Assembly: GCA_964354835.1 (NCBI GenBank)
Contig: CAYHBF010000050.1
Coordinates: 1 to 34,342 of the forward strand
Origin: an uncultured Candidatus Saccharibacteria bacterium
Lineage (GTDB): Bacteria; Patescibacteriota; Minisyncoccia; Minisyncoccales; CAYHBF01
Direction: 5' to 3'
DNA length: 34,342 bases
The notes below the pieces were generated by a model, which made no database searches, was not told the DNA's origin, and saw only the letters and a program-made list of their open reading frames with translations. A program made the position numbers and the translations under genes. Each line of letters opens with the position of its first letter. Position 1 is the stretch's first letter. Positions 20,192-34,148 of the stretch are shown in pieces.

Positions 20192-21439
20192 ATGAAATTT
20201 ATTGCTGATTTTCATTTACATTCGAAATATTCTCGGGCGACTTCTCCCCAGATGGACTTAGAGAATCTTGATAGCTGGGCTAAAATAAAGGGAATTAAAA
20301 TTTTAGGAACAGGAGATTTCACCCATCCCGAATGGTTGAAAAATTTAAAAGAGAAATTAGAACCCGCGGAGGCGGGCCTTTTTAAATTAAAAAACAGCAA
20401 CAGCGAAACTCGATTTCTTTTAACTGCTGAGGTAAGCTGTATTTATTCTAAAGAGGGGATGGTTCGGAAAATCCACATTATATTATTTTCTCCTTCTTTT
20501 GAAATTTGTGATAAAATTAATGTTCATTTAGGTTGGATTGGCAATCTAAAAGCAGACGGAAGACCAATTTTGGGCTTGGACGCCAAAGAGCTTTCAAAAA
20601 TTGTTTTAAATATTTCTCAGGACTGTTTAATTGTCCCCGGGCATATTTGGACTCCCTGGTTTTCATTGTTCGGCTCTAAGTCCGGCTTTGATTCAATTGA
20701 GGAATGTTTTGAGGAATATACAAAATATATTTTTGCCGGCGAAACAGGTTTAAGCAGTAACCCGGCAATGAATTGGCGGCTTTCGGTCCTGGATAAAATT
20801 ACCTTAATAAGCAATAGTGATAGTCATAGTCCTTCCCGAATCGGCCGAGAATCTAATGTGTTTGATACCGAAATTTCTTACTCCACAATTATTGAAGCAA
20901 TAAAGTCAAAAAATCCCCTCAAATTTCTTTATACTGTTGAATTTTTTCCAGAAGAAGGTAAATATCATTATGATGGGCACAGAATTTGCGGAATCTCCCT
21001 ATCTCCTCAGGAGTCGAAAAAATATAACAATATCTGTCCCAACTGCGGAAGGCCTCTGACTATTGGGGTTTTAAACAGGGTTGAGGAACTGGCTGATCGA
21101 CCAGTGGGTTTTAAACCAGCGACTTTTATCCCGTTTAAAAGCTTGGTTCCTTTAGTTGAAATAATTGCCGATGCTTTGGGCTTGCTTTCCGGGGCAAAGC
21201 AAGTTAATGAAGAATATAATCGTCTAATTGAAAAATTTGGAAACGAATTTAAGGTTTTACTTGAAGCTTCCCGTCAAGATTTAGAGGCAGCTACTCTGCC
21301 AGAAATTGCTGAAGGTATCGTCAGAGTGAGAGAGGGAAGAGTCAATATCGAACCGGGCTATGATGGGGTTTATGGAAAAATCAGAATTTTTTCAAAGGGC
21401 GAGCAAAAAACCATATCAAAACAGGGGACCCTTTTTTAA
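20192..21439 (+). CDS. Endonuclease Q-like PHP-domain nuclease (TIGR00375 family)
   Basis: ADFHLHSKYSRATS, GTGDFTHPEW, SNSDSHSP, GKYHYDGHR, zinc ribbon CPNCGRPL, and PGYDGVYGKIRIF. It is collinear with my recollection of Pyrococcus EndoQ. Confidence 0.8.
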   Translation: MKFIADFHLHSKYSRATSPQMDLENLDSWAKIKGIKILGTGDFTHPEWLKNLKEKLEPAEAGLFKLKNSNSETRFLLTAEVSCIYSKEGMVRKIHIILFSPSFEICDKINVHLGWIGNLKADGRPILGLDAKELSKIVLNISQDCLIVPGHIWTPWFSLFGSKSGFDSIEECFEEYTKYIFAGETGLSSNPAMNWRLSVLDKITLISNSDSHSPSRIGRESNVFDTEISYSTIIEAIKSKNPLKFLYTVEFFPEEGKYHYDGHRICGISLSPQESKKYNNICPNCGRPLTIGVLNRVEELADRPVGFKPATFIPFKSLVPLVEIIADALGLLSGAKQVNEEYNRLIEKFGNEFKVLLEASRQDLEAATLPEIAEGIVRVREGRVNIEPGYDGVYGKIRIFSKGEQKTISKQGTLF

Positions 21440-21452
21440 AAACAATTTACTT

Positions 21453-22340
21453 ATGAAAATAGGAATTCCGCAAGCTTTACTTTATTGGAAACAACCTTAT
21501 TTTTGGGAAACTTTTTTTGGAAATTTGGGTTTTGAAGTTTTACTTTCCCCTCCAACTAATAAAGAGATTGTTGAGCAAGGGGTAAAAGTCTCGGATCCCG
21601 AAACTTGTTTTTCTAATAAAGTTTATTGGGGTCATCTTTTGTGGCTTGATGGAAAATGCGACTACATTTTTATTCCCCGACTGAAGGTTAATGGAGAAAA
21701 GCTTGAATACTGTCCTAAATTTTTTGGAGTTCCAGACCTTGCCAAGATTTTAGTAAAAAATAAAATCCTGACCGAAACTTTTAATGAAAGAAAGGAAAGC
21801 TTTGAAAGAACCCTTGAAAAATTAGGGGAAAAATTAAATAAAAACAGAAAAGAGGTAAAAAAAGCAGCAGAAATTTCCTTTTTAAAGCAAAAAGAAATAA
21901 AAGAAAAAGAGGAAGAAGATTTCCTGAAAAAAATTCAGTCTCCCAAACAAAAATTTATCTTAATTTCTCACCCCTACAATTTAAAGGATGAATATGTTAA
22001 TTTAAGAATGAAAGAAAAGCTGGAAAAATTAGGAGCTGAAGCAATATTTATTGACGAAGTTCCAATTCAAAATAAAGAAAATAAATTGGATTGGCCGAAA
22101 TTCCACTGGGAGTTTGGTAAAGAAATAATGGAAAAGATGAGCACAATATTAAACTACAATATCGCCGGTGCTATTGAGATTTCTTCTTTTCAGTGCGGTT
22201 GCGATGCAGTTTTAAAAGAATTTGTTGAAAAAGAATTTAAATCGAGAAAAATCCCCTTCTTATACTTAATTGTTGACGAACAAACCGGTGAGGCTGGTTT
22301 TCAGACCAGATTAGAGGCCTTTTTGGACACCATAAAATAA
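21453..22340 (+). CDS. Acyl-CoA dehydratase-activase-associated protein (DUF2229-like)
   Basis: MKIGIPQALLYWKQPYFWETFFGNLGFEV...ETCFSNKVYWGH, and a C-terminal CGCDAV...VDEQTGEAGFQTRLEAFLD. I chose the ATG at 21453. Confidence 0.7.
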   Translation: MKIGIPQALLYWKQPYFWETFFGNLGFEVLLSPPTNKEIVEQGVKVSDPETCFSNKVYWGHLLWLDGKCDYIFIPRLKVNGEKLEYCPKFFGVPDLAKILVKNKILTETFNERKESFERTLEKLGEKLNKNRKEVKKAAEISFLKQKEIKEKEEEDFLKKIQSPKQKFILISHPYNLKDEYVNLRMKEKLEKLGAEAIFIDEVPIQNKENKLDWPKFHWEFGKEIMEKMSTILNYNIAGAIEISSFQCGCDAVLKEFVEKEFKSRKIPFLYLIVDEQTGEAGFQTRLEAFLDTIK

Positions 22341-22349
22341 TTTACCACT

Positions 22350-23435
22350 ATGGAAAAACCAATTATTACGTTTGCCAGATGGGGGAATTATACCATTGCT
22401 TTTAAAACCATTTTTGAACAGTTGGGCTTAGAAGTAATTTCTCCAGAAAAAACGAATTCTCAAACTATTGCTGAAGGCGCAAAATTAAGCCCGGAAATGT
22501 TTTGTTTCCCAATGAAAGTAAACCTGGGAAATTATTTGCCGGCCCTGAAAAAAGGAGCCAATACCATTTTTATGGTTCAAAATATCGGTGGTTCCTGCCG
22601 GCAAAGATATTACGGAGTCATTCAGGAAAAAGTTTTAAAAGAGGCCGGTCATCAGATTAATTTTTTAGATTTCAGAGCTACCCCAAAAGACATTTATTCA
22701 AAAGTAAAGGAAATTTCCGGAGCCTCTTTTTGGCAGATAATGAAGGTGGCCCGTTTTTTCTTAAAAAAACTAGCATTAATTGAAAAAATTGAGAAAATGG
22801 GTCAATATTACCGGCCAAGAGAAATTGAAAGAGGAGAGACGGACAGAATAATCCAATGGAGTTTTTCAAAACTCGAAGAACCAAAAAAAGAAGAAGATTT
22901 CCCCAAGCTCAAACAGGAAATTTTAAAAAAAATTACAGAGATTAAAATCAATAAAAATAAAAGTTTGCCAAAGGTAGCTCTGGTTGGCGAAATCTATACG
23001 GTTTGCGACCCGACGATTAATTTCAAGATTGAAGAGAAACTTGGCATGGAGGAAATCGAAGTTCACCGGCAAATGGATATTACTTACCATATAAAAAAAC
23101 TGATTTTTCCCTGGAAGGATTGGATAATTCAGAGAAAGATAAATCCTTATTTACGTTCTACCGTTGGCGGTCATGGTCGAGATGCGATTTACGAAATGCT
23201 TAATTATGTAAAAGAGGATTTCGACGGTATAATTCACCTTCTGCCCTTTGGCTGCATGCCGGAAGTAACCGTCAGGCCGATTTTAGAAAAAATTCACCAG
23301 GAGTCGGGAATGCCCTTTTTATCTTTGTCTCTCGATGAGCAAGTAGCCGAGGCGGGCATTGATACAAGATTAGAGGCCTTTATTGATGTAGTCAGAAATC
23401 ATTACAAAAATAAATCTAGAACCGCAATATCTTAA
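22350..23435 (+). CDS. 2-hydroxyacyl-CoA dehydratase subunit-like protein (HgdB/D-component-like, DUF2229)
   Basis: FCFPMKVNLG, VALVGEIYTVCDP, and FGCMPEV...LDEQVAEAGIDTRLEAFID (the same C-terminal signature as the preceding gene). Confidence 0.7.
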   Translation: MEKPIITFARWGNYTIAFKTIFEQLGLEVISPEKTNSQTIAEGAKLSPEMFCFPMKVNLGNYLPALKKGANTIFMVQNIGGSCRQRYYGVIQEKVLKEAGHQINFLDFRATPKDIYSKVKEISGASFWQIMKVARFFLKKLALIEKIEKMGQYYRPREIERGETDRIIQWSFSKLEEPKKEEDFPKLKQEILKKITEIKINKNKSLPKVALVGEIYTVCDPTINFKIEEKLGMEEIEVHRQMDITYHIKKLIFPWKDWIIQRKINPYLRSTVGGHGRDAIYEMLNYVKEDFDGIIHLLPFGCMPEVTVRPILEKIHQESGMPFLSLSLDEQVAEAGIDTRLEAFIDVVRNHYKNKSRTAIS

Positions 23436-23446
23436 ATCACAAATTT

Positions 23447-24412
23447 ATGAGAGCTTACTTAGGCATAGACGTCGGCTCCATTTCAACCAAGTTTGTTTTG
23501 ATTGACGAAAAAAACCAGATTCTGTATTCTTCCTATTTCAGAACTGAAGGAAATCCAATCAGAGCTGTCCAAAAGGGTTTAAAAGAATTAAACAATCAAA
23601 TTTCAAAACATAATCCAGCCGTTGAAATTGCTGGAGTTGGAACTACTGGTTCTGCCCGATATTTAACGGGAGTGATTACCGGAGCCGATTTAATAAAAAA
23701 CGAAATCACCGCTCACGCCAAAGGTGTTTCCTATTTCGTTCCCGAGGTCAAAACGGTAATTGAAATTGGAGGCCAGGATTCAAAAGTTATAATTTTAGAA
23801 AATGGAGTGGTAGTTGATTTCGCAATGAATCTTATTTGCGCCGCCGGTACAGGGTCATTTCTTGACGCTCAAGCCTTCAGGTTAAAAATCCCGATTGAAA
23901 AATTTGGAGATTTGGCCCTAAAAGCAAAAACCCCCACAACTATTGGTTCTCGGTGTACCGTTTTTTGTGAATCAGACATGATTCACAAACAGCAAATTGG
24001 CCATAAAACAGAAGATATTATTGCTGGATTATGTCAGGGTTTGGCTCGAAATTTTTTAAATAATGTAGCCAGAGGAAAAAACATTCAACCACCGATTGTT
24101 TTTCTGGGAGGAGTGAGTGAAAATCTGGGGATGAGAAAAGCTTTTGAGGAGGTTTTGAACCAAAAAATTATTGTTCCTTCTTATAACACGGTAATGGGGG
24201 CATTCGGAGTTGCCCTTTTACTGAAAGAGATGTCTCTCCCAAAAACAAAATTTCTTGGTTTTGAAATTTCAGATAAAGACATTAAATGTACTTCTTTTCA
24301 ATGTAAGGGTTGTCCGAACCAATGTGAAGTTATTGAGGCCAGAATTGACGGGAAAGTCGTAGCCAGATGGGGAGACCGATGCGGAAAATGGTCAAACTTA
24401 TCTTATGAATAA
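23447..24412 (+). CDS. BcrAD/BadFG-type ATPase (dehydratase/reductase 'activase')
   Basis: LGIDVGSISTK, EIGGQDSK, CAAGTGSF and GGVSEN actin-fold motifs. There is a Cys-rich tail CTSFQCKGCPNQCEV...GDRCGKW. Confidence 0.85.
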   Translation: MRAYLGIDVGSISTKFVLIDEKNQILYSSYFRTEGNPIRAVQKGLKELNNQISKHNPAVEIAGVGTTGSARYLTGVITGADLIKNEITAHAKGVSYFVPEVKTVIEIGGQDSKVIILENGVVVDFAMNLICAAGTGSFLDAQAFRLKIPIEKFGDLALKAKTPTTIGSRCTVFCESDMIHKQQIGHKTEDIIAGLCQGLARNFLNNVARGKNIQPPIVFLGGVSENLGMRKAFEEVLNQKIIVPSYNTVMGAFGVALLLKEMSLPKTKFLGFEISDKDIKCTSFQCKGCPNQCEVIEARIDGKVVARWGDRCGKWSNLSYE

Positions 24413-24427
24413 TTGAGATTATTTCCT

Positions 24428-24790
24428 ATGATTAAAGAATATCATTTTGGCTCAATAACTATTGATGGGAAAGTTTATAATCACGATGTCGAAGTCCGTT
24501 GGGCTGGCGAGGTTTTACCTTGGCAAAGAAAAGAGAGCCACATTATTGACGTGGAAGATGTAAAAGGAACGGTTGAACAAAATCCAGATACAATTATTAT
24601 TGGTACTGGCGAATCGGGAGTGGCCAAGATTACTCAGGAAGCTAAAACTTTTATTCTCGAAAAAGGAATTAAATTGATTATTGACAAGACAGGAGAGGCG
24701 GTAAAAACCTTTAATGTTATTAATGAAGAATCGAAAGAGGAAGAAGGCGAGCAAAACAAGATAATTGGTCTGTTCCACTTGACTTGCTAA
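24428..24790 (+). CDS. Mth938-domain (DUF498/NDUFAF3-like) protein
   Basis: FGSITIDGKVYNHDVEV...PDTIIIGTGESG...EKGIKLIIDKTGEAVKTFN. I chose the ATG at 24428. Confidence 0.6.
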   Translation: MIKEYHFGSITIDGKVYNHDVEVRWAGEVLPWQRKESHIIDVEDVKGTVEQNPDTIIIGTGESGVAKITQEAKTFILEKGIKLIIDKTGEAVKTFNVINEESKEEEGEQNKIIGLFHLTC

Positions 24791-24807: not shown

Positions 24808-25003
24808 CCAGTCAGACCAATAAGTCGTAGTATCTTAGTTAAATTTCGTTTTCAAAAATCGAAAGTAAATTAAGTAGAGCGACCGAAGGTCATCCTTCGA
24901 CAAGCTCAGGATGATGCTGAGTTTACCGAAGTATCAAAAGGTCGTTTTTATTTTTAATTATCAGTGTCCCCGAAATTTGCGAAGCAAATTTGGGGCAATA
25001 TCT

Positions 25004-25186
25004 ATGGCTTTCAAAAAATTTGAAGGCGAGAGAACGGACTTCCCACCTCGAAAAATGTATCAGGGAAACTGGGCTTGTGCCGATTGCGGAACAGCTATAA
25101 CTGAACTCCCATTCGAGCCCTCTCCAGACAGACCTATTTATTGTCGAGAGTGTCATGCGAAACGCAGAAGTCAATTCCGACGCTAA
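25004..25186 (+). CDS. CxxC-x17-CxxC zinc-ribbon protein (60 aa)
   Basis: MAFKKFEG...WACADCGTAITELPFEPSPDRPIYCRECH. CADC and CREC are separated by 17 residues. The ATG at 25004 is preferred over the upstream start in the ORF track. Confidence 0.75.
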   Translation: MAFKKFEGERTDFPPRKMYQGNWACADCGTAITELPFEPSPDRPIYCRECHAKRRSQFRR

Positions 25187-25258: not shown

Positions 25259-26341
25259 CTATGTTTTCGGGAACCAACTGATTAAATTCCCCCTTATTTC
25301 AAATTTTCCATTAAAAAATTTCTCAATCACCCAAATATTAGTCCTGCAGTGATTAGTAATTTCTGAAACGGTAACCTTAGATTTCCCGGGACCTAAAGCC
25401 ATATAGGGCAAAATTTGGTCGGCTAAATGTTTATCTAAACAAGCCTCGGATTTCTGTTCTCTTAATAATTCAAAAGCAGCTTCTTTTCCAACGTCTTCTG
25501 CTCTTTTGCCTAATTTTCCCAAATTATCGGCTCCGATAACCGTATTTTCAAACTCGGCAATTAAACAAATCTGGCTTCCCGGACATTGGGTAGGATAATA
25601 TTCAATTTTTTCTTCAGTCGGTAGCTTTAATTTCCCTAAAATTTCTTTCACGCCGGCAATTTGCCGCTCGGCCACGTTTTTGTCTTGTAATAACTCTGAA
25701 GCGCCGGAAATAACTAAAATTTTTTGAAGTTCTCCCCGTTCGGTTAAATTAAGCCCCTTTAATTTAAAAGCTTGCCCTCCGGAGCCTTGCTTGTCCACTG
25801 AAACTTTAGCGGAGGCGGGGCGAAGGAGGGGAAATAGCGTTATTTCTACTCCTGCTCCTCCTTCGGGATAATAACCCCTTTTTAAGATATTTATTTCTCC
25901 TTTTGCGCCTAATTTTTCCAGTATTTTTAAGAACACATAATGAAAATAATCAATTGTCGGCGAGAAAAAAGTATCAGTAGCCCCGCCTTCAAAAGTAATT
26001 TTTATCGGGCGAGGAGCAAATAGGGAAGGCAGAATTAAGGTTTGTAAAACCAAAGTAATGCTCCCAGCCGTTGGAATATCTACAAAGACTCGTTCTTTGT
26101 AAATTTCACCAGGGTAAAATTTAATTTCCTGAGATCCTAATTCGTCTCCCTCCAAGCTTCCGTTGCAAAGCCGGGCCAGGGCTTGAATTCCCGCAAGATG
26201 TTGCGGCATTAAACCTGGTTTTTCTCTGCCTTTTCTGATGTTATAAACAAGACAGGGGTTTTTAGTAACCGCCGATAAAGCGCAGGCTGTTCTCAATATT
26301 TGGCCGCCGGCTTCGCCTATTGAACCGTCAATTTCAATCAT
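25259..26341 (-). CDS. rtcA: RNA 3'-terminal phosphate cyclase
   Basis: [30 protein letters not shown], a GGATD-type region and [10 protein letters not shown]. There is an in-frame GC-rich segment at about 25775-25833. Confidence 0.9.
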
Positions 26342-26352
26342 CGAAATAAATT

Positions 26353-26471
26353 TTATTGAGATGGCAGATGAATTTCTAATTCATCAATCATCGAAATAAA
26401 GTTCGCTGAACTTCGTTCATCTCTCGCCCTTCGCTTTACTTGGGCAGATGAATTTCTAATTCATTGATCAT
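26353..26471 (-). promoter_or_regulatory. rtcA leader with two tandem mini-ORFs created by nested duplications
   Basis: uORF1 at 26471-26436 encodes MINELEIHLPK*. uORF2 at 26391-26353 encodes [13 protein letters not shown] 17-nt exact repeat TTTATTTCGATGATTGA (minus strand) precedes and overlaps both uORF2 and the rtcA start. Confidence 0.5.
26398..26444 (+). repeat. Copy of the element in the rtcA upstream region
   Basis: AAGTTCGCTGAACTTCGTTCATCTCTCGCCCTTCGCTTTACTTGGG aligns with the consensus. It is flanked by a 28/30-nt direct repeat at 26363-26392 and 26443-26472. Confidence 0.65.
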
Positions 26472-26648
26472 CTTATATCTATTCTAAAGTAGAAACCCTT
26501 TAAAATCAAAGAACCCCGGCTTCTGTGGATAAATTTTGTCGGCATAATAGAAATGCTTTAACGTGTGGAAATATTGTGTTAAAATTAAAATATGGATAAA
26601 AAACTAGATAAAAAATGTTTGCAGAAAGTCTAACAAAAAAAATAAAAA

Positions 26649-27050
26649 ATGAAAAAATATCCTAACGTAACCGTAAAAGTCATATTTAGGTATAAAAGTA
26701 GAATATTAATTTTAGGGCATAAGAATGGCGTGTTTAGCTTTCCTGGAGGACGGATGAATTGGGGAGAGTCAATTTTAGAAGCTTTAAATAGGGAATTAAA
26801 GGAAGAAATAAATTATTCATTAGAGAGCGAACCGGAATTATTAGAAGTTTGGAATTACATCTCTAAAAATCGATTACGTCATAGCGTTATGATTAATTTT
26901 ATTCAACAATTAGATAAAAAACCTAAATTATTTTCTCCGGAAAAATTAAAAACCCTTTGGCTTAATAAAAATGATATTCTTTCAAGGAATATTATTAAAG
27001 AAAAAGAATTTATTGATAAGATATTTAATTGGAATAAATCGAAAAAATAA
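26649..27050 (+). CDS. NUDIX hydrolase
   Basis: Nudix box GGRMNWGESILEALNRELKEEINY. Confidence 0.8.
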   Translation: MKKYPNVTVKVIFRYKSRILILGHKNGVFSFPGGRMNWGESILEALNRELKEEINYSLESEPELLEVWNYISKNRLRHSVMINFIQQLDKKPKLFSPEKLKTLWLNKNDILSRNIIKEKEFIDKIFNWNKSKK

Positions 27051-27344
27051 TTAAAATATTAAATCTTGAAAAAGAAAAAAGAATTACAAAATCTTATCTT
27101 GGCTTGATGTGTGAGAGAAAAAGGAGGGTATAATGTTCATTTATATTGGTGGCGTTTTAGATTCGATAAAAACTGCCATATACGCGTAAATTACTCTCTG
27201 TATAATATTAACAAATATTGATATCTTTTTTGTTTATTATAAAATATAAAAAAGCAACATCAAAAGGTCGATTTTTAAACATATTCTAAAATATAAAACC
27301 ATTTTTAGAAACCTTTTTGTCTATAAAAATTAAATTCCTTCTTA

Positions 27345-27373
27345 TTGACAAAAAAAGATAGGAATGCTAAACT
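27345..27373 (+). promoter_or_regulatory. Candidate promoter of the DUF2000 gene
   Basis: TTGACA (27345-27350), 17-nt spacer, TAAACT (27368-27373). AGGAGG sits 9 nt upstream of the ATG at 27481. Confidence 0.5.
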
Positions 27374-27480
27374 GTTATTAGCTGTTTTCAAAGTAGTTTT
27401 TTGTTCTACGGAAACAAAGAAAAGAGAAAGAAATAAGCCTAGAACAAGAAAAATTATTAAGAGAAGGAGGATCTTATCAT

Positions 27481-27906
27481 ATGGAAAAATACCCCCACAA
27501 ATTAGTTGCAGTATTGAATGGGAACATAGGAGGAGTAGGTATTATCATGAATGCATTAGCCCATATGGCTCTTGGTCTGGGCGCAAGCGTCGAAGATAAG
27601 TCTGGATTTAGATTCGTGGATTATACTGATGGAGATGGCAATAGCCATGCGAATATTTCTGAATTGCCGTTCATAATTCTTAAAACAAAAAATCCCGAGG
27701 AGTTAAAAGAGTTAAGAAAAGTGCTCATCAGTAGAAATGTTCGTTTTGTTGACTTTCCAGGTTTCATAAACTCTATCGGGACATTCGAGAATCCAGAAAA
27801 AAGTAGGCAATTTAAAGAAGAAGGTATAGAATACTATGGGATTGTTATGTACGGCGATTGGGATGTTGTCACAGAGTTGACAAGAAAATTCTCCCTTTGG
27901 AGATAG
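27481..27906 (+). CDS. DUF2000-like protein (PTH2-like fold family)
   Basis: 141 aa. KLVAVLNGNIG..GIIMNALAHMALGLG...ELPFIILK...YYGIVMYGDWDVVTELTRKFSLW matches my recollection of the DUF2000 pattern. It has a strong SD. Confidence 0.55.
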   Translation: MEKYPHKLVAVLNGNIGGVGIIMNALAHMALGLGASVEDKSGFRFVDYTDGDGNSHANISELPFIILKTKNPEELKELRKVLISRNVRFVDFPGFINSIGTFENPEKSRQFKEEGIEYYGIVMYGDWDVVTELTRKFSLWR

Positions 27907-27951
27907 ATAAGGCTGCAACTTGCCCCACGAAAAATTGATCCCCCCAGTTGG

Positions 27952-29034
27952 TTATACTCGGGGGATTTTCTTTAATGTCTTAAAAGTCTCACAAAGTAAA
28001 ACTTCATTTCCAATAAAATAAATGATTGGTCTATTTTTTTTAATAATAAAATTATACTTTACAATACCAAAGAAGGCATCAATGAGCGAGTTGCTTTCGA
28101 TATCACTAGAATAGTGTAGTTCACCAACAATCCAAGCCGCATTTTCAACTATAGATGGGTATTTAACTAAAAATCTTTCCGCACCCTCGATATCAATTTT
28201 AAGACCATATCCTTCACCGCTTATAATCCTATCAAATGGAAGTATAGAAACTTGTCTGGCGTGTGACTGTTTTACATACAGTGATGGAAGTGCGTGGGAT
28301 TGGTTGCTAAAGAATAAAGTTGTCTGTTTTTCGGTATCACCAACTGCTGCATTGATTATTTTCGCGTTTATATTATTGTTATCTAAATTTTGTTTGAGTA
28401 TCTTAAGGTTCTCTTCCATTGGCTCCACGCATATAATTTCTGCACATGGGTTAAGTGAGTGGAAGTATATTGCTGAAAGACCAATATTCGCACCGAGATC
28501 GTAAATACATTTAACAGGATTATTGAAATAATAAACTTCTTCTGCAAATATTTCCCACAGTAAACCAAGTGATACGAGATCGGCAGGGTAAGCAATATTG
28601 ATAAATTGATTGTGTATAAAAAGCTGAATTTTTCTTATTTTTTTAATATTAATAGGGTTGTTATTGATCGAAAGCCCACGCAAATGACGGATAGAAGCTT
28701 TCATATAATCATTAAACAATATCAAACGACTGTGGAAATCAAAGGTAATTATTTTGTATCCGTGTAATATCTTTTTGAGACTATATTCCTTCGCTATTTT
28801 TTTTGCGTATTTGCGAAGTTTTTTAATATCAAGACCAGTTATATTGGCTATGAGTGAAGTCAAATTAAAAATTCTGTTATTACACACCAAATCTTTTGGC
28901 AGTGTTCCTGAACGCATTTCTAATAGAGGGCCCGGAATTCCCGCTACACACCAATATCTATCTTCTACGGAAAGTCTATTAAGAAGGTGATTGAGTGTCG
29001 ACTTCCAATCTCGTAATGGACAATTATTATTCAT
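27952..29034 (-). CDS. FkbM-family SAM-dependent methyltransferase with ~170-aa N-terminal extension
   Basis: IYDLGANIGLSAIYF, ICVEPMEENLKILKQNL, AAVGD and LKIDIEGAE. It overlaps the upstream radical SAM gene by 8 nt. Confidence 0.8.
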   Translation of the reverse strand: MNNNCPLRDWKSTLNHLLNRLSVEDRYWCVAGIPGPLLEMRSGTLPKDLVCNNRIFNLTSLIANITGLDIKKLRKYAKKIAKEYSLKKILHGYKIITFDFHSRLILFNDYMKASIRHLRGLSINNNPINIKKIRKIQLFIHNQFINIAYPADLVSLGLLWEIFAEEVYYFNNPVKCIYDLGANIGLSAIYFHSLNPCAEIICVEPMEENLKILKQNLDNNNINAKIINAAVGDTEKQTTLFFSNQSHALPSLYVKQSHARQVSILPFDRIISGEGYGLKIDIEGAERFLVKYPSIVENAAWIVGELHYSSDIESNSLIDAFFGIVKYNFIIKKNRPIIYFIGNEVLLCETFKTLKKIPRV

Positions 29035-30145
29035 TTTTCGGAAGATTTTTTTGATTACCTACCAATAAAGTACAATATGGATCGCATGCGAAAATAGATT
29101 TATTATTAACTAATGCCTTTGAACGACAGCCACCAAGACATAATTGAAAAAAATTACAAGAAGCACAAGGTTCTTTGATATTGTCTTCAAGTGCCCGTGC
29201 CGTAGAAAAAGGTGGTTCTTGAATAATCTCAGTAAGAGTTTTATCAGATAGATTTGCCACAGACGGCATTTCGGGACACAAAGCAACACTGCGATTCACC
29301 TTTATAGCTGCCCCAGCTAAAAAAATTCCGCAAGAATGCGCAGGAGTTGAACTGTATGGTATAGACCATTTAATATTAAATTCTTTTTCATCCATTTCTT
29401 TTAAAGTTCGCCTAAGCCAACGAGCTTGATTATAATCCACTGCGATATCTGATGTAGCTTTACCAATTTCTGTAGCTAATTCAACATTGGGGAAAAAATT
29501 GTTTTTCCGAGCGAACCGCCAAATTTCAGGTATCTCATAAAGATTAATCTTCGTGGCACAGGGGCCGATACCAAGCCTTGCATAACGTCCATTTAGCTTT
29601 CCGAAACCAACTTCCAAAAGAGCATCTAAGCTGGAACGAATCTTTTTATAAGTACCTTGTCCACTAAGTTTATCCTGAGTTTTTTCTTTTCCATCTAATT
29701 TAATCATTATCGATGCTCCAAGATTAAACAGACGCTTTGCAATGTCTAAACTTATTAACGTACCATTTGTAAAGATAACTGGTATCACTTTTTTACGACT
29801 AACGTATTCAATAAATGGCCAAAAATGCTTATATAAAAGAGGTTCTCCACCTCCGAGGTAAACTATTGATTGCAAACCTAAATTAATTCCTTGGTCGATA
29901 ATATCACAGGCATCTTTAAGCAACATTTCTTTTAGTTTTTCTCGTCGTAAATAAGAATAACAATATATGCATTTCAAATTACAGCTGTCGTTAGTCTCCA
30001 TCCGTAAGCAGAGGATTTGACCCGCATCACGAGCTGCATAAATTTCCTGCAATGAATAGCTATAGCCCTTCAAAAGTACACAACTATCTCCTCCTGGATA
30101 ATCATTTCTATCGGTTTTTAATTCTTTTATTTTTATATTTCTCAT
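29027..30145 (-). CDS. Radical SAM enzyme with C-terminal SPASM domain
   Basis: CNLKCIYC (nt 29960-29983, checked by hand), GGGEPLL, and the SPASM signature CASCNFFQLCLGGC (Cx2Cx5Cx3C) plus upstream Cys residues. Confidence 0.9.
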   Translation of the reverse strand: MRNIKIKELKTDRNDYPGGDSCVLLKGYSYSLQEIYAARDAGQILCLRMETNDSCNLKCIYCYSYLRREKLKEMLLKDACDIIDQGINLGLQSIVYLGGGEPLLYKHFWPFIEYVSRKKVIPVIFTNGTLISLDIAKRLFNLGASIMIKLDGKEKTQDKLSGQGTYKKIRSSLDALLEVGFGKLNGRYARLGIGPCATKINLYEIPEIWRFARKNNFFPNVELATEIGKATSDIAVDYNQARWLRRTLKEMDEKEFNIKWSIPYSSTPAHSCGIFLAGAAIKVNRSVALCPEMPSVANLSDKTLTEIIQEPPFSTARALEDNIKEPCASCNFFQLCLGGCRSKALVNNKSIFACDPYCTLLVGNQKNLPKNE

Positions 30146-30163
30146 TTCCTTTTTAATATTTTA

Positions 30164-31195
30164 TTAAATATTGGGTCTATACGGACAATAGCCATCAAAT
30201 TTTGTTCTATTAAGAAATGGATATTTTACCAATATTTTACTTTCTAGTTCTTTTATAGAAGCTTCTTTCACATTGCCAATTATATCTTCATTACCTACAC
30301 AAGGACTTACTCTTCCATCTCCATATATTTGTAGAAACTCTATACATGGCATTGTTGTTGATCCATTCCATATAGGATGAAAGAATCCATATTCTTCATC
30401 AACTTTTTTTACTATTTCTTTCAATTTAGCCCTATTTTTCTTATTAAGCATTAATGATTTGTCAAAATCTTCTTTTCCACTTCTTCCAGAGGGAAGATAA
30501 GTAGTAAAAATTATCCATAAATTATTATTTCTACAATAGCGTAGCGTTTTTTCGACTTCGTCGATATTTCTTTTTGTAACAACCATATCAAAACCTAATC
30601 TTGTAGTTCCATCTTCTTGAACTTTGTTAAACCCATATTCCATAAGAAATTCTATTGCTTCGTTTCTTTGTTTAAAATATTTACCAGTCTTATCTCCAAC
30701 GACCCAATTTTGATATTCCTTATTAAATAAACTATCGCATTTTGGGCATATACTTGCACCAGATTCATAAACCCTTTTAACAAAATCTTTATCTCTCATT
30801 TTTATTGCGGCATCCGTATATATGGACTGATGAATTCCTTTTGAGGAAGTATATTCAATTATTTCAAAAAAATCTTTATCAATTGTCGGCTCTCCTTCTC
30901 CAACAAAATCAATTGCATAGGTGTTCAAATCAACTAATTGGTCTATTACGTTTTTAATCTCATTTAACGTTAAAGTTTTTCTATTTTTATCTGTAAAACA
31001 ATGGAAACAATTATGTGGACACGCTTCTGTCATCGCGCGAAAATTTACGACAGGAAGCCTTGAAGGATTACGATAATCTCCCTCTGTCATATCCCATCCC
31101 TTAATTACTGCTCCTATGTCTATAGGAACGTATCCAAGTCCGATATACTTTTTTTTACTTAATTCCATTAATATTGGTTTAGATTTCTTCTTCAT
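30164..31195 (-). CDS. Radical SAM enzyme (MoaA/twitch-like C-terminus)
   Basis: CPHNCFHC (nt 30998-31021, checked by hand), GEGEPT, and C-terminal Cys residues (MPCIEF...VSPCVG...GYCPY). Confidence 0.85.
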   Translation of the reverse strand: MKKKSKPILMELSKKKYIGLGYVPIDIGAVIKGWDMTEGDYRNPSRLPVVNFRAMTEACPHNCFHCFTDKNRKTLTLNEIKNVIDQLVDLNTYAIDFVGEGEPTIDKDFFEIIEYTSSKGIHQSIYTDAAIKMRDKDFVKRVYESGASICPKCDSLFNKEYQNWVVGDKTGKYFKQRNEAIEFLMEYGFNKVQEDGTTRLGFDMVVTKRNIDEVEKTLRYCRNNNLWIIFTTYLPSGRSGKEDFDKSLMLNKKNRAKLKEIVKKVDEEYGFFHPIWNGSTTMPCIEFLQIYGDGRVSPCVGNEDIIGNVKEASIKELESKILVKYPFLNRTKFDGYCPYRPNI

Positions 31196-31240
31196 TTAAC
31201 GCTAATTATGCCGAAAGCCAAATATTTTAGCTTATAAATT

Positions 31241-31269
31241 TATTTAAACAATTATCTTATATTTGTCAA
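31241..31269 (-). promoter_or_regulatory. Candidate promoter of the radical SAM operon
   Basis: On the minus strand: TTGACA (31269-31264), 17-nt spacer, TAAATA (31246-31241). Confidence 0.5.
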
Positions 31270-31647
31270 TTAATTGAACCGAAACTCTACAGCATTTTCA
31301 GAACTGAAAAAACTGTCAACAATTCTGAAAAGGTACCATCTAATCGATGGAACAGTGACGAAGGCTAATATTTTGAAAACCTCTTTATCTGTTTTTTCTT
31401 CCGATGGACAATTTTATCTTACCCATTTATTCCAAGAAAAAGGAGCAGATCTAGGGCTATGTCCTTATTTCTGCATCTTTTTCAAAAAAGAATCAGAAAC
31501 TACGTTGAGTCCATATTCACGGGTAATTGCTCGAGCTATAAAAGAAAAGGGGCTAAATGGATGCACTTTGCGTGGAGACTGGTGTCTCTGGCAACTAAAT
31601 TTAGAGAAGGAAAGAAGATAATTAAAAAAATCATAATATCTAACTAT

Positions 31648-31681
31648 CCCTTTGTGAATCATTTCACGGAGGGCTTTTTTT
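31648..31681 (+). terminator. Intrinsic terminator ending an orphan plus-strand transcript
   Basis: CCCTTTGTGAA-tcat-TTCACGGAGGG followed by CTTTTTTT. Confidence 0.6.
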
Positions 31682-31755
31682 AATATTGCTAAGATGATAA
31701 ATTTTTTATTTTTGTCGGGAATTAGTTTACAAAAAATTTACAAATTTAGTTTAAA

Positions 31756-31854
31756 GTCGATGAAGCTATCGCTTCATCTTCACCCTTCGCTTCGCTCGGG
31801 AAGGCGATGAAACTAAAGTTTCATCTTCACCCGTCGCTACCGCTCGGGTAATTG
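31756..31854 (+). repeat. Two tandem copies of the GC-rich hairpin element (reference copies of the family)
   Basis: Copy 1 is 31756-31800, with hairpin GATGAAGC-tatc-GCTTCATC then TTCACCCTTCGCTTCGCTCGGG. Copy 2 is 31804-31854, with GATGAAAC-taaa-GTTTCATC then TTCACCCGTCGCTACCGCTCGGGTAATTG. Confidence 0.85.
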
Positions 31855-32062
31855 AAGAAAATTGGGCTTGTCCACTTAAATTTTCTAAAAATTTAAGCGG
31901 GCTTTGGGATAGGCCTCTTTGAAAAATCCTTGTAGCCTCCTCTTTGAATATGAAAAATAAAGTGTTATTATTAAAATAGTTAAAATTTGAAAGAGAAAAA
32001 ATAAAAAAATATGCTCAATTCAAAATTTTTGGCAAATTATTTTAGGCTTAAATAATAATTAC

Positions 32063-33103
32063 ATGGAAATTATAGAAAGATTACCAGAATTTAATAATCA
32101 CAGAATTATAGTCTTTCTTTCCGACTTTAAAAGTGGATTAAAGGGCTTTATTGCAATTCATAGAGGGGGATTACTTCGTCCCGCTTTTGGGGCAACCCGA
32201 TTGTGGAAATACTGTTCAGAATTAGAAGCATTAAAAGATGTATTAAAGTTATCGCAAATAATGTCTTATAAATCAGCTATCCATAGCTTAAATTATGGTG
32301 GTGCAAAGGGTATAATTATGAGTACGTTACAAAATCCCAGAAAAAATTTTTTATTAAAGACCTATGCAAAGAAAGTTAATTATTTAAATGGCCACTTTAT
32401 AACTGGAGCAGATATTGGCGTGACTCAAGAAGATGTAAAGATAATGAAAAAAGAAAGCCCATTTTTTGTGGGAACAAGATACGACCCAGCGAAATTTACT
32501 GCTCTAGGTAACTTTTATGCACTTTTTGTATGTTTAAAAAAAATTTTTGGAAATGAACATCTTTCTGAACGTACTTTTGCAATCCAAGGATTGGGAAAAG
32601 TAGGAATGGAGTTTTTAAAATTAATCTATAAAAATAGTAAAAAAATTTTTATTTCTGATATTAATTATTTAAAAATTAAAGCTGCAAAAAAAATGTTCCC
32701 CAAAATTCAAGCCGTTAAGCCTTCAGAAATTCATAAATGTCCGGTTGATGTTTTTTCACCTTTTGCCCTTAGTAATTCTATTACTCTTAAAAACGTTTCT
32801 CAACTTCGATGTAAAATTATTATTGGAGGGGCAAATAATCAATTAGAAAACGATAAGGTGGGGAAAATATTATACAAATCTGGCATTCTCTATGCGCCAG
32901 ATTTTGTAGTAAATGCCGGTGGATTAATTAGTGTAGTTGATGAATTTGAACACAAAGATTATAACAAAGAAAGAGTAAACAATCGCGTAGCAAAAATTAA
33001 AGAGATCCTTCAAAAAATATTTAAAAAAAGCGAAGAAAAATCCCAACCTCCAAATCTAATAGCAAAAGAAATAGCCGAAAAAATCTTTAACAAATATGAA
33101 TAA
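32063..33103 (+). CDS. Glu/Leu/Phe/Val dehydrogenase family protein (Leu/Phe-dehydrogenase-like)
   Basis: FGATRLWKY, the catalytic-Lys block NYGGAKGII, the Rossmann motif IQGLGKVG, and GGANNQL. Confidence 0.85.
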   Translation: MEIIERLPEFNNHRIIVFLSDFKSGLKGFIAIHRGGLLRPAFGATRLWKYCSELEALKDVLKLSQIMSYKSAIHSLNYGGAKGIIMSTLQNPRKNFLLKTYAKKVNYLNGHFITGADIGVTQEDVKIMKKESPFFVGTRYDPAKFTALGNFYALFVCLKKIFGNEHLSERTFAIQGLGKVGMEFLKLIYKNSKKIFISDINYLKIKAAKKMFPKIQAVKPSEIHKCPVDVFSPFALSNSITLKNVSQLRCKIIIGGANNQLENDKVGKILYKSGILYAPDFVVNAGGLISVVDEFEHKDYNKERVNNRVAKIKEILQKIFKKSEEKSQPPNLIAKEIAEKIFNKYE

Positions 33104-34148
33104 GCTAAGGCCAATTTTTCTAAAAAACGATAAAGAGTTTAAAAAACTCTCAAAAGAAAAGTCTTTTCTGTCAGTTATAGATGTTTTTGAGAGACAATTA
33201 AAAGAATTAATTTTTATTGATCAGCCGAAATTTATTGGCCAAGAAAAAAAGAAAGTTTACCAAAATTCAGAGTTTAAAGAATTTGTTAAGAAGAAAAAGA
33301 ACGATTTTTATTATATATATTTTCCTTGGAAGCATACTGTAGTCAAATCAGTCAAAGAGAGAGATTTTTACGAGCTTAAAACTAATCGAAATCGTGATTT
33401 AATTCTCCCTGAAGACCAAAAGAAATTATACAATTGTGGAATAGCAATTTTAGGACTGAGTGTAGGAAATAATATTGCTTTAACTTTAGCGCTTTCGGGT
33501 ATTGCCCGTAAAATGATCATAGCCGACTGCGACGAATTAGAAACAACTAACTTGAATCGGATACTGGCGGGCATTCATGAAATAGGTTTAAATAAAACTC
33601 TTCTCACCGCCCAAAAACTATATGAACAAAACCCTTATTTAAAACTTACACTTTTACCAAAAGGAATTTCTAAGAAAAACCTCGAGAAATTGTTAGAAAA
33701 AAAAGAAATTGATTGTATTATAGAAGAAATTGATAATTTGTTTCTCAAAGTTCAAATTCGTGACCTAGCCATAAAATATAAGGTTCCGGTAATAATGATT
33801 ACTGATAATGGAGAAGGGGTAGTTCTTCACGTTGAGAGATACGATTTAGGATACAACATGGTATTTGAAAAAGAGGCGGATTATTGGCTTAAAAAATTTT
33901 CTAAACCCCTTACCAAAAAAGAAATTGGAGAAATTATTTGCAGAGAGATTGTTGGTGGAGAAGAAAAAGTTGATCGTAATATGCTTCTTTCGGTACAAAA
34001 AGTTGTAGAAAACAAACTTATCTCTTGGCCTCAATTAGGAACAGCGGCTCTACTCGCAGGAGTAGTAACAACAATCTTGATTAAAAATATTGTTTCTGGT
34101 CAGAATAAAAGATCTTATATAAAAAAATATATTAATATTATAACCTAA
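33096..34148 (+). CDS. ThiF/E1-like adenylyltransferase, Rv1355c-like subfamily, with ~110-aa N-terminal domain
   Basis: YIYFPWKHTVV...RNRDLI...ILGLSVGNNIA...ADCDELETTNLNR...ITDNGEGVVLHVERYD matches my recollection of the Rv1355c-type pattern. It overlaps the dehydrogenase gene by 8 nt. Confidence 0.75.
   Translation: MNKLRPIFLKNDKEFKKLSKEKSFLSVIDVFERQLKELIFIDQPKFIGQEKKKVYQNSEFKEFVKKKKNDFYYIYFPWKHTVVKSVKERDFYELKTNRNRDLILPEDQKKLYNCGIAILGLSVGNNIALTLALSGIARKMIIADCDELETTNLNRILAGIHEIGLNKTLLTAQKLYEQNPYLKLTLLPKGISKKNLEKLLEKKEIDCIIEEIDNLFLKVQIRDLAIKYKVPVIMITDNGEGVVLHVERYDLGYNMVFEKEADYWLKKFSKPLTKKEIGEIICREIVGGEEKVDRNMLLSVQKVVENKLISWPQLGTAALLAGVVTTILIKNIVSGQNKRSYIKKYINIIT

Follow-up and report, generated by a model that had tools for sequence, protein, structure and literature searches.

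The contig CAYHBF010000050.1 from an uncultured Candidatus Saccharibacteria bacterium, here called the window (34,342 nucleotides, nt), carries on its minus strand three closely packed genes, which are the subject of this article. They encode two radical S-adenosylmethionine (SAM) enzymes, referred to as rSAM1 and rSAM2, and a long FkbM methyltransferase, and a gene for a DUF2000 protein faces them from the other strand. An earlier note, made from the sequence alone, had singled out this trio as an orphan operon with no recognizable substrate gene. The genes and signals at the locus, with protein lengths in amino acids (aa), are as follows:

30164..31168, minus strand: rSAM1, radical SAM enzyme with a CxxxCxxC motif and a predicted twitch-like C-terminus (PF04055 and family alignment)
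29027..30145, minus strand: rSAM2, 372 aa, radical SAM enzyme with a full SPASM domain (PF04055 and alignment)
27952..29034, minus strand: long FkbM methyltransferase, 360 aa (TIGR01444, PF05050)
27481..27906, plus strand: DUF2000 gene (PF09391), convergent with the trio across a 45-nt spacer
31241..31269, minus strand: promoter-like TTGACA-17-TAAATA sequence 5' of rSAM1, read from the sequence
27890..27903, minus strand: terminator-like hairpin with a T-run, from a consensus scan alone

The three open reading frames (ORFs) were recovered where the note had placed them (30164-31195, 29027-30145 and 27952-29034). The rSAM1 frame is open over 30164-31195 (343 aa) and could start at 31195, but M10 at 31168, where NCBI annotates the start and where all homologs begin, is the likeliest start and gives a protein of 334 aa. 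rSAM1 and rSAM2 are 18 nt apart, the rSAM2 and FkbM frames share 8 nt, and the terminator-like hairpin lies 49 nt past the FkbM stop codon, within the 3' end of the convergent DUF2000 gene. The sequence proposed as a promoter is indeed present, with TTGACA at 31269-31264, a 17-nt spacer and TAAATA at 31246-31241. However, the -10 element is weak (3 of 6 consensus positions matched), promoter-like sites in the region are not more frequent than expected by chance (33 observed vs 26.2 +/- 4.4 in shuffles), and a comparison of upstream DNA showed no conservation of the site at other loci with the trio.

Among the homolog loci that we fetched, which are given L numbers below, the trio is syntenic at nine besides the window; a contig scan with a single-protein query yielded five close loci. 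The nine are L008/L015, from a Patescibacteria metagenome-assembled genome, L016, from Paceibacterota, L017, L013, L021, L022 and L072, as well as L018 (JBAQMZ010000044.1), on a contig binned as Candidatus Methanoperedens, and L102/L024, where the order is rearranged to rSAM2, FkbM, Peptidase_S66 and rSAM1. Their proteins are 58-89% (rSAM1), 52-86% (rSAM2) and 38-76% (FkbM) identical to those of the window. At six loci (the window, L015, L016, L017, L013 and L021) a convergent DUF2000 gene lies 15-50 nt downstream of the trio. The flanks are unrelated between all trio loci and include genes for RNase Y, ClpP, conjugation functions and carboxylases as well as a tRNA gene. The trio is therefore a horizontally mobile cassette, usually with the DUF2000 gene along.

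Several variants of the cassette were observed. In L102 the Peptidase_S66 gene follows FkbM in the position usually held by DUF2000, but shares the strand of the trio. LdcA and MccF, the immunity enzyme against microcin C, both belong to the S66 family, and we count this gene in favor of the amino-acid hypothesis set out below. The L018 trio is 64-78% identical to the copies in bacteria belonging to the candidate phyla radiation (CPR); either an archaeon acquired it horizontally or the contig was misbinned. On the short contig of L047 (1381-2923), a homolog of the long FkbM (43% identical) comes about 200 nt after rSAM1 with no rSAM2 in between, possibly a version of the cassette with two genes only. 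At some loci the cassette has integrases, a HicA toxin gene and conjugation genes in its vicinity. The non-coding “hub” and the dehydrogenase/E1-like operon upstream, which had been thought of as meaningful neighbors, lost that status, since no other trio locus is adjoined by the 870-bp non-coding region or the dehydrogenase/ThiF pair, and upstream sequences from different loci could not be aligned. A functional tie of the trio to either of them was therefore ruled out.

The two radical SAM proteins are paralogs, about 28-30% identical, and share the CxxxCxxC core with SPASM/twitch enzymes such as anSME, BtrN, SkfB, PqqE, SuiB and MoaA, which are also their best sequence and structure matches. 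In rSAM1 (PF04055, 41.4 bits vs a gathering score of 29.5) the cluster motif is CPHNCFHC, with C50, C54 and C57 (334-aa numbering) invariant in the family alignment. The protein falls just below the Pfam SPASM gathering score, and the conserved cysteines in the alignment are the C-terminal C275, C290 and C328 together with C212 and C144. The seven-cysteine SPASM motif was not found in the alignment; because the CxxCx5Cx3C element is missing and the three C-terminal cysteines are kept, the C-terminus is twitch-like, as the earlier note had it, with one predicted auxiliary cluster. In rSAM2 (PF04055, 63.8 bits vs 29.5) the cluster motif CNLKCIYC is likewise invariant, and all seven C-terminal cysteines are conserved (C272, C290, C327, C330, C336, C340 and C358), including CxxCx5Cx3C. 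This is the full SPASM pattern, which we defined as Cx9-17GxxxC ... CxxCx5Cx3C ... C with two auxiliary 4Fe-4S clusters, and it bears out the original description of rSAM2 as a SPASM enzyme. The Pfam SPASM score of the window protein is 19.2 bits, just below the cutoff of 21.5, and many of its homologs carry PF13186.

The resemblance to characterized enzymes ends there. Neither protein reached a curated NCBIfam cutoff, including those of the models for MoaA, anSME, PqqE, AhbC/D, viperin, MftC, NirJ and Tes. The best score was 53.7 bits for rSAM1, against the mycofactocin maturase MftC with a cutoff of 265, and 86.8 bits for rSAM2, against NirJ1 with a cutoff of 650; MoaA scored about 40-51 bits vs 231. 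An AlphaFold2 (AF2) model of rSAM1 with a pLDDT of 87.9 gave Foldseek neighbors that all lie at TM scores of about 0.5-0.64, namely SkfB (the best, 0.64), viperin-like enzymes, anSME, MoaA, CteB, SuiB, Tes, BlsE and DesII. The structural matches level off at about 0.6. rSAM1 forms a new branch within the SPASM/twitch clade and lacks any specific characterized relative. The trio also differs from known SPASM/twitch systems in that it has no PqqD-like partner or RiPP recognition element (RRE; RiPP, a peptide synthesized ribosomally and modified post-translationally), no sulfatase, and no peptide or aminoglycoside context. The earlier note had named an outcome that would undo its proposal, namely that both proteins belong to characterized housekeeping families and that the trio is not syntenic in related genomes. 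The outcome was the opposite, because neither protein belongs to such a family and the trio is syntenic at nine loci.

Relatives of rSAM1 form more than 120 clusters at the 90% identity level, 60-89% identical to the window protein, and are found in Patescibacteria, Nanoarchaeota, Pacearchaeota and other DPANN archaea. No relatives were found among the viral contigs of IMG/VR. The family is highly conserved, with a mean column identity of 66% and many invariant Arg, Lys and Asp residues. The Patescibacteria and DPANN proteins are 60-70% identical, which implies that the gene was exchanged recently between the two domains. At 13 of the 93 fetched rSAM1 loci, duplicates counted, rSAM2 is also present. 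Elsewhere rSAM1 has no conserved partner, and the 72 putative operon neighbors of the standalone genes (59 distinct loci) are almost all singletons and mostly housekeeping genes. The recurrent neighbors are a divergent tandem Lrp/AsnC regulator (16 loci), a TrmB regulator (6) and integrases (7). We considered a role in the alternative heme pathway (AhbAB/NirDL), given that a tandem AsnC-like gene diverges from standalone rSAM1 and that NirJ and AhbD are among the top radical SAM matches. However, the AsnC-like protein scored 22.6 bits vs the AhbB cutoff of 125 and best matches the Lrp, LysM and ChrS regulators, and this idea was rejected. In one Nanoarchaeota genome, rSAM1 begins directly past the stop codon of a ferredoxin-reductase-like gene. 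In L083 (6998-11534), rSAM1 and a four-helix-bundle gene (TIGR02436) are inserted in the str operon between rpsG (S7) and fusA (EF-G).

These patterns bear on the hypothesis that the substrate is a protein or peptide whose gene lies elsewhere in the genome, with the radical SAM enzymes cross-linking or oxidizing a housekeeping or surface protein and FkbM methylating it, by analogy with anSME and QhpD. Full SPASM domains typically occur in peptide and protein maturases, and the rSAM2 family profile finds its best matches in the Protein Data Bank in SkfB, PqqE, anSME, CteB and SuiB (E 2e-24 to 2e-17; 2e-24 to 7e-18 for the first three), just as SkfB is the best structural match of rSAM1. The strong conservation of rSAM1, standing alone in tiny genomes, would fit a conserved macromolecular substrate, and its insertion between rpsG and fusA could be read in the same way. 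Yet that insertion is a single case and comes with the four-helix-bundle gene, no co-localized substrate was seen at any of more than 90 loci, a partner of the RRE or PqqD type is lacking, and the relatives of rSAM2 occur in quite different surroundings, as described below. On balance, we consider a role in protein modification rather unlikely.

The rSAM2 family comprises about 68 clusters, beyond which the score falls sharply to generic AhbC-like proteins. Relatives that are 48-71% identical to rSAM2 are found among biosynthetic genes that handle amino acids. In L104 the relative lies between a GNAT gene and a nonribosomal peptide synthetase (NRPS) of C-A-T-C structure, followed by a B12-radical SAM gene, and in L006 it lies 3' of a polyketide synthase (PKS) and two amine oxidases, with an asparagine synthase gene as neighbor. 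L004, L100 and L103 share the order epimerase, GT2, ATP-grasp, a paralog of class I lysyl-tRNA synthetase (LysRS), a CapK-like adenylating enzyme and the radical SAM gene, followed by an S-methyltransferase (not in L103) and a FemAB-like gene (not detected by Pfam in L100). The LysRS paralog scored 234 and 190 bits with TIGR00467 vs a cutoff of 147.55; in L103 it is fused to an N-terminal region of about 430 aa. The closest homolog outside the trio, in L001 (71% identical), occurs with a GNAT gene, an acyltransferase, another SPASM radical SAM gene and, two genes away, a KamA-family aminomutase gene (251.7 bits vs a cutoff of 199.2) for which lysine 2,3-aminomutase is the best specific match. 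Beside this homolog are also ProRS and CysRS genes, but they encode genuine housekeeping synthetases and were dropped as evidence. In more distant relatives (about 35% identity) the protein is fused to a tRNA_edit domain of the YbaK type (P0056, 68.6 bits). Taken together, the contexts of the rSAM2 relatives point to amino-acid building blocks, with lysine recurring.

Many rSAM2 homologs have an extra C-terminal domain of about 120 aa that is absent from the window protein, as seen in L018 (10134-10568), L072 (3689-4036) and the proteins P0012, P0013, P0015, P0016, P0023 and P0027. With a conserved core of roughly DRIFR...YLLT...KLY.RLKSLL, this domain matches nothing in Pfam.

The third enzyme matches the FkbM family models over residues 177-308 only (TIGR01444, 73.8 bits vs 37.7; PF05050, 34.4 vs 22.7). 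Like FkbM and NoeI-type O-methyltransferases, its C-terminal 185 residues or so pass these models and adopt a class I methyltransferase fold in the AF2 model (pLDDT 88.5), in which seven helices (10-118) and a beta-hairpin (133-150) precede the Rossmann methyltransferase domain (about 175-356). Unlike them, it carries this N-terminal module of about 150-170 residues, for which no relatives were detected outside the family linked to the trio. The earlier note had described an N-terminal domain of about 170 aa as unique; the domain exists, but it defines a family, since this long form has about 40 relatives (clusters), which always occur on contigs with rSAM2 relatives. Foldseek returned generic class I methyltransferases only, with rRNA and tRNA methyltransferases among the top matches at a TMq of about 0.3.

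FkbM enzymes are best known for O-methylating sugars and macrolides, and so the possibility has to be considered that the radical SAM enzymes tailor a nucleotide or sugar nucleotide, perhaps a viperin- or MoaA-like modified nucleotide with an antiviral or toxic effect, that FkbM then O-methylates. Viperin-like enzymes, MoaA, BlsE and DesII are among the structural neighbors of rSAM1, and the window, L013 and L011 have NUDIX genes close by. The mobility of the cassette, its varying context and the integrases, HicA and conjugation genes near some copies would also suit such a function. Both radical SAM proteins further match the PADLOC pVip profile weakly, at about 47-49 bits. But these matches cover profile positions 2-172 of 257 only, that is the radical SAM core, the NCBIfam viperin score is 37.9 vs a cutoff of 180, and with no relatives in IMG/VR we discarded the idea of a viperin-type defense gene. 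Furthermore, kinase, nucleotidyltransferase and glycosyltransferase partners are lacking, the divergent Lrp/AsnC or TrmB regulators beside standalone rSAM1 suggest metabolic regulation, and the links of DUF2000 to LysRS and tRNA deacylases, discussed below, would be left unexplained. We regard nucleotide or sugar tailoring as improbable.

The earlier note had also left room for a RiPP system with a very short or distant precursor, in which the SPASM enzyme would act as a maturase. The resemblance of rSAM2 to RiPP maturases is consistent with this, and RiPP-like graspetide clusters have been predicted in CPR genomes (PMC8939145). We therefore compared all ORFs of 12-120 aa in the region 26342-32062 with the nine other trio loci. 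No intergenic ORF of at least 12 aa was conserved across these loci and none was Cys- or Gly-rich; the conserved matches were alternative frames within the four genes only. Two candidate precursors, a 40-aa ORF in L102 and an 81-aa ORF in L001, were neither conserved nor precursor-like. Pfam and NCBIfam searches found no RRE or PqqD domain, leader peptidase or exporter, and there is no protease or transporter in the flanks of the trio loci, which themselves all differ. An RRE hidden within one of the enzymes was also sought: there is no room for it in either radical SAM protein, since only about 50 residues precede the cluster motif, and in the N-terminal domain of FkbM the AF2 model shows helices and a hairpin but no winged helix, with Foldseek matches to methyltransferase cores only. 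The absence of a precursor, an RRE or PqqD-like gene, a protease and a transporter, which the note had reported, is thereby confirmed. A cis-encoded RiPP precursor is very unlikely, the reading of the locus as a RiPP system in cis is largely refuted, and even with a very short precursor or one placed just outside the trio it strikes us as most improbable. Of the two alternatives first put forward, it is thus the tailoring of a small molecule that gains from the new data, through the NRPS, PKS, KamA and LysRS paralog/FemAB/ATP-grasp contexts of the rSAM2 relatives, while the RiPP alternative gains nothing.

The informative neighbor is DUF2000, a point that the earlier note had missed. The window protein scored 102.2 bits with PF09391 vs a cutoff of 25, and the family profile matches the orphan structure 2GAX (E 6.8e-13). 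A search of 1.84 billion representative proteins identified 303 relatives, six of which are proteins of about 645-660 aa. All four of the long proteins that were tested are complete class II LysRS enzymes (587-608 bits vs 468) with DUF2000 at the C-terminus. Moreover, the Legionella plasmid pLPP and a plasmid of Legionella sp. MW5194 carry a same-strand run of DUF2000 (first), a YbaK/EbsC gene and an alanyl-tRNA-editing (AlaX-like) gene. In these islands, L105 (pLPP 118500-130910) and L109, the run is set among GNAT acetyltransferases and phosphotransferases, and the MW5194 island also holds a class I methyltransferase and an LD-carboxypeptidase; the arrangement gives the impression of an island for resistance to antimetabolites of the amino-acid or aminoacyl-nucleotide kind. 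In L. adelaidensis DUF2000 lies 5' of an M20 hydrolase gene, and in Azospirillum 5' of a LysE-family exporter gene. DUF2000 is thus associated, both by fusion and by genomic position, with aminoacyl-tRNA synthetases and editing factors, and it is this link to LysRS and tRNA deacylases that makes it an informative neighbor. By analogy, it is a candidate for a tRNA-proofreading or deacylase-like safeguard. We also aligned the DUF2000 profile with hhalign to a profile of five Pth2 sequences, which were validated against PF01981 and 2ZV3. The alignment covers 117 co-linear columns over the full length, but is statistically weak (E 8.7e-4, probability 23%). No Pth2 gene was present in the fetched loci.

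The same association could be taken to mean that the cassette modifies RNA, for example a nucleoside in tRNA-Lys, another tRNA or rRNA, with DUF2000 as a tRNA-binding accessory protein. Standalone radical SAM genes that are kept in reduced genomes often modify RNA, and rRNA and tRNA methyltransferases rank high among the structural matches of FkbM. These matches are, however, generic to the Rossmann fold, as their low TMq indicates, and THUMP, PUA, TRAM and S4 domains were not detected with Pfam or NCBIfam. With the relatives of rSAM2 in clusters that resemble secondary metabolism, and with a cassette that is sporadic and mobile rather than part of a core gene set, we find this explanation quite improbable.

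We tentatively favor the hypothesis that the cassette is a mobile pathway whose product is a non-canonical amino acid or a small molecule made from an amino acid, in either case possibly derived from lysine, and that DUF2000 serves as a safeguard at the tRNA level; this seems to us a real possibility, although short of probable. The trio would be co-transcribed, and its products would serve as three tailoring enzymes acting on a free, carrier-bound or tRNA-bound amino acid, most likely lysine or another basic amino acid. rSAM1 and rSAM2 could catalyze successive steps begun by hydrogen abstraction with a 5'-deoxyadenosyl radical, such as a dehydrogenation or a C-C or C-N rearrangement, with the auxiliary clusters handling electrons, and FkbM would then cap the new functional group to give a methylated product. 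DUF2000 may act on an aminoacyl-tRNA, most plausibly tRNA-Lys, and either strip off a mischarged analogue as a means of self-protection or release a product bound to the tRNA. The analysis establishes the gene content, motifs, synteny and mobility of the cassette, its lack of RiPP hallmarks and the associations of DUF2000 and of the rSAM2 relatives, whereas the substrate class, the choice of lysine, the nature and sequence of the reactions and the activity of DUF2000 are all inferred.

There are precedents for parts of this scheme. Radical SAM chemistry on a basic amino acid would be analogous to that of KamA- and PylB-type enzymes, which act on free lysine, and a KamA-family gene is found near the closest rSAM2 homolog outside the trio. 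The analogy is functional only, and we do not claim homology beyond the core: these are different subfamilies, KamA being dependent on pyridoxal phosphate and PylB being BioB-like, neither with a SPASM domain. Another parallel is provided by pathways in which tRNA deacylases encoded beside biosynthetic genes protect the producers of non-canonical amino acids from mistranslation, and thereby mark such pathways (Millar et al., 2026, PMC13149037). In the clusters with BesG/AlaX, F-Thr and canavanine deacylases (PMC13149037), a small set of free-standing tailoring enzymes likewise lies beside a gene for aminoacyl-tRNA proofreading, and the fusion of distant rSAM2 relatives to a YbaK editing domain adds to the likeness. 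The cassette fits the logic of a deacylase-marked pathway. It differs from those clusters in that the candidate deacylase is outside the recognized families, the tailoring enzymes are radical SAM proteins and the host belongs to the CPR.

Several observations weigh against the hypothesis of an amino-acid-derived product. The functional evidence is all guilt by association. About 85% of the rSAM1 loci have rSAM1 alone, with no conserved partner, and rSAM1 itself must therefore be able to function in the absence of rSAM2, FkbM and DUF2000, perhaps in a process that does not involve amino acids; the hypothesis leaves this predominantly standalone occurrence unexplained. DUF2000 lies on the opposite strand, is confined to a closely related subset of the trio loci and is absent at L018 and L072, and its similarity to Pth2, being statistically weak, is suggestive only. 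By sequence comparison, the nearest solved relatives of rSAM2 are peptide- or protein-modifying enzymes, and a sugar or nucleotide substrate would fit FkbM equally well. The LysRS paralogs could be biosynthetic, could be resistance genes, or could have nothing to do with the role of rSAM2 in the window. Finally, CPR bacteria generally lack amino-acid biosynthesis, and the precursor would therefore need to be imported.

The remaining neighbors of the cassette agree with their first description, in that DUF2000 (102 bits), an ELFV dehydrogenase and a ThiF protein were all recognized by Pfam and NCBIfam. Upstream of rSAM1, the 870-bp stretch at 31196-32062 has no convincing gene and no Rfam match at E<=1. 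It contains a 115-aa ORF without a Pfam match (31274-31621, plus strand), a terminator-like hairpin (31648-31673, plus strand) and two tandem 38-nt hairpin-forming repeats that are 84% identical (31754-31791 and 31801-31838). It is followed at 32063-34148 (plus strand) by a ScyB-like amino-acid dehydrogenase gene (260 bits vs a cutoff of 600), which overlaps by 8 nt a ThiF/E1-like gene whose product resembles Rv1355c-family proteins over their N-terminal half (207 bits vs a cutoff of 476). Such a coupling is unusual for a CPR genome, and at other loci the trio is found without it. On the other side, beyond DUF2000, are a NUDIX hydrolase gene (26649-27050, plus strand; a non-homologous NUDIX gene also lies 3' of DUF2000 in L013), the gene for the RNA 3'-phosphate cyclase RtcA (25259-26341, minus strand) and a gene for a small treble-clef zinc-finger protein (24911-25186, plus strand). 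Farther away, genes for two DUF2229/HGD-D-like proteins, a BcrAD_BadFG ATPase and a DUF498 protein (20192-24790, plus strand) resemble an activase system of the 2-hydroxyacyl-CoA-dehydratase/benzoyl-CoA-reductase type, which is unexpected in a reduced genome.

A more far-reaching version of the favored hypothesis would have the mobile CPR pathway convert lysine into a methylated antimetabolite that poisons lysyl-tRNA charging or protein synthesis in neighboring or host cells. DUF2000 would then be a new deacylase family that protects the tRNA-Lys of the producer, the LysRS-DUF2000 fusions and the DUF2000-YbaK-AlaX islands of Legionella would represent resistance on the target side, and rSAM1 would be the founding step of the pathway. 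We consider this version distinctly unlikely.

Most conserved genes of unknown function in CPR bacteria and DPANN archaea are hard to study, and these lineages are, to our knowledge, thought to be nearly devoid of secondary metabolism. The kind of system described here, a radical SAM tailoring cassette that is possibly marked by a deacylase, is known; what is new are the families, the lineage and the connection between DUF2000 and LysRS. A literature search found nothing on DUF2000, on Atu0240 or on the combination of radical SAM, FkbM and SPASM enzymes, and neither of the radical SAM families, the long FkbM form nor DUF2000 has a characterized member. Our findings define an rSAM1 family exchanged between CPR and DPANN genomes and a mobile cassette of three enzymes around it, and they give DUF2000, a Pfam family whose orphan crystal structure is 20 years old, a testable function as a LysRS-linked safeguard of aminoacyl-tRNA. 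If the hypothesis is true, genome mining with deacylase markers would gain a new deacylase family, radical SAM enzymes would gain a new amino-acid chemistry, and the cassette would be a first case of antimetabolite-type chemistry among ultra-small bacteria that live as episymbionts.

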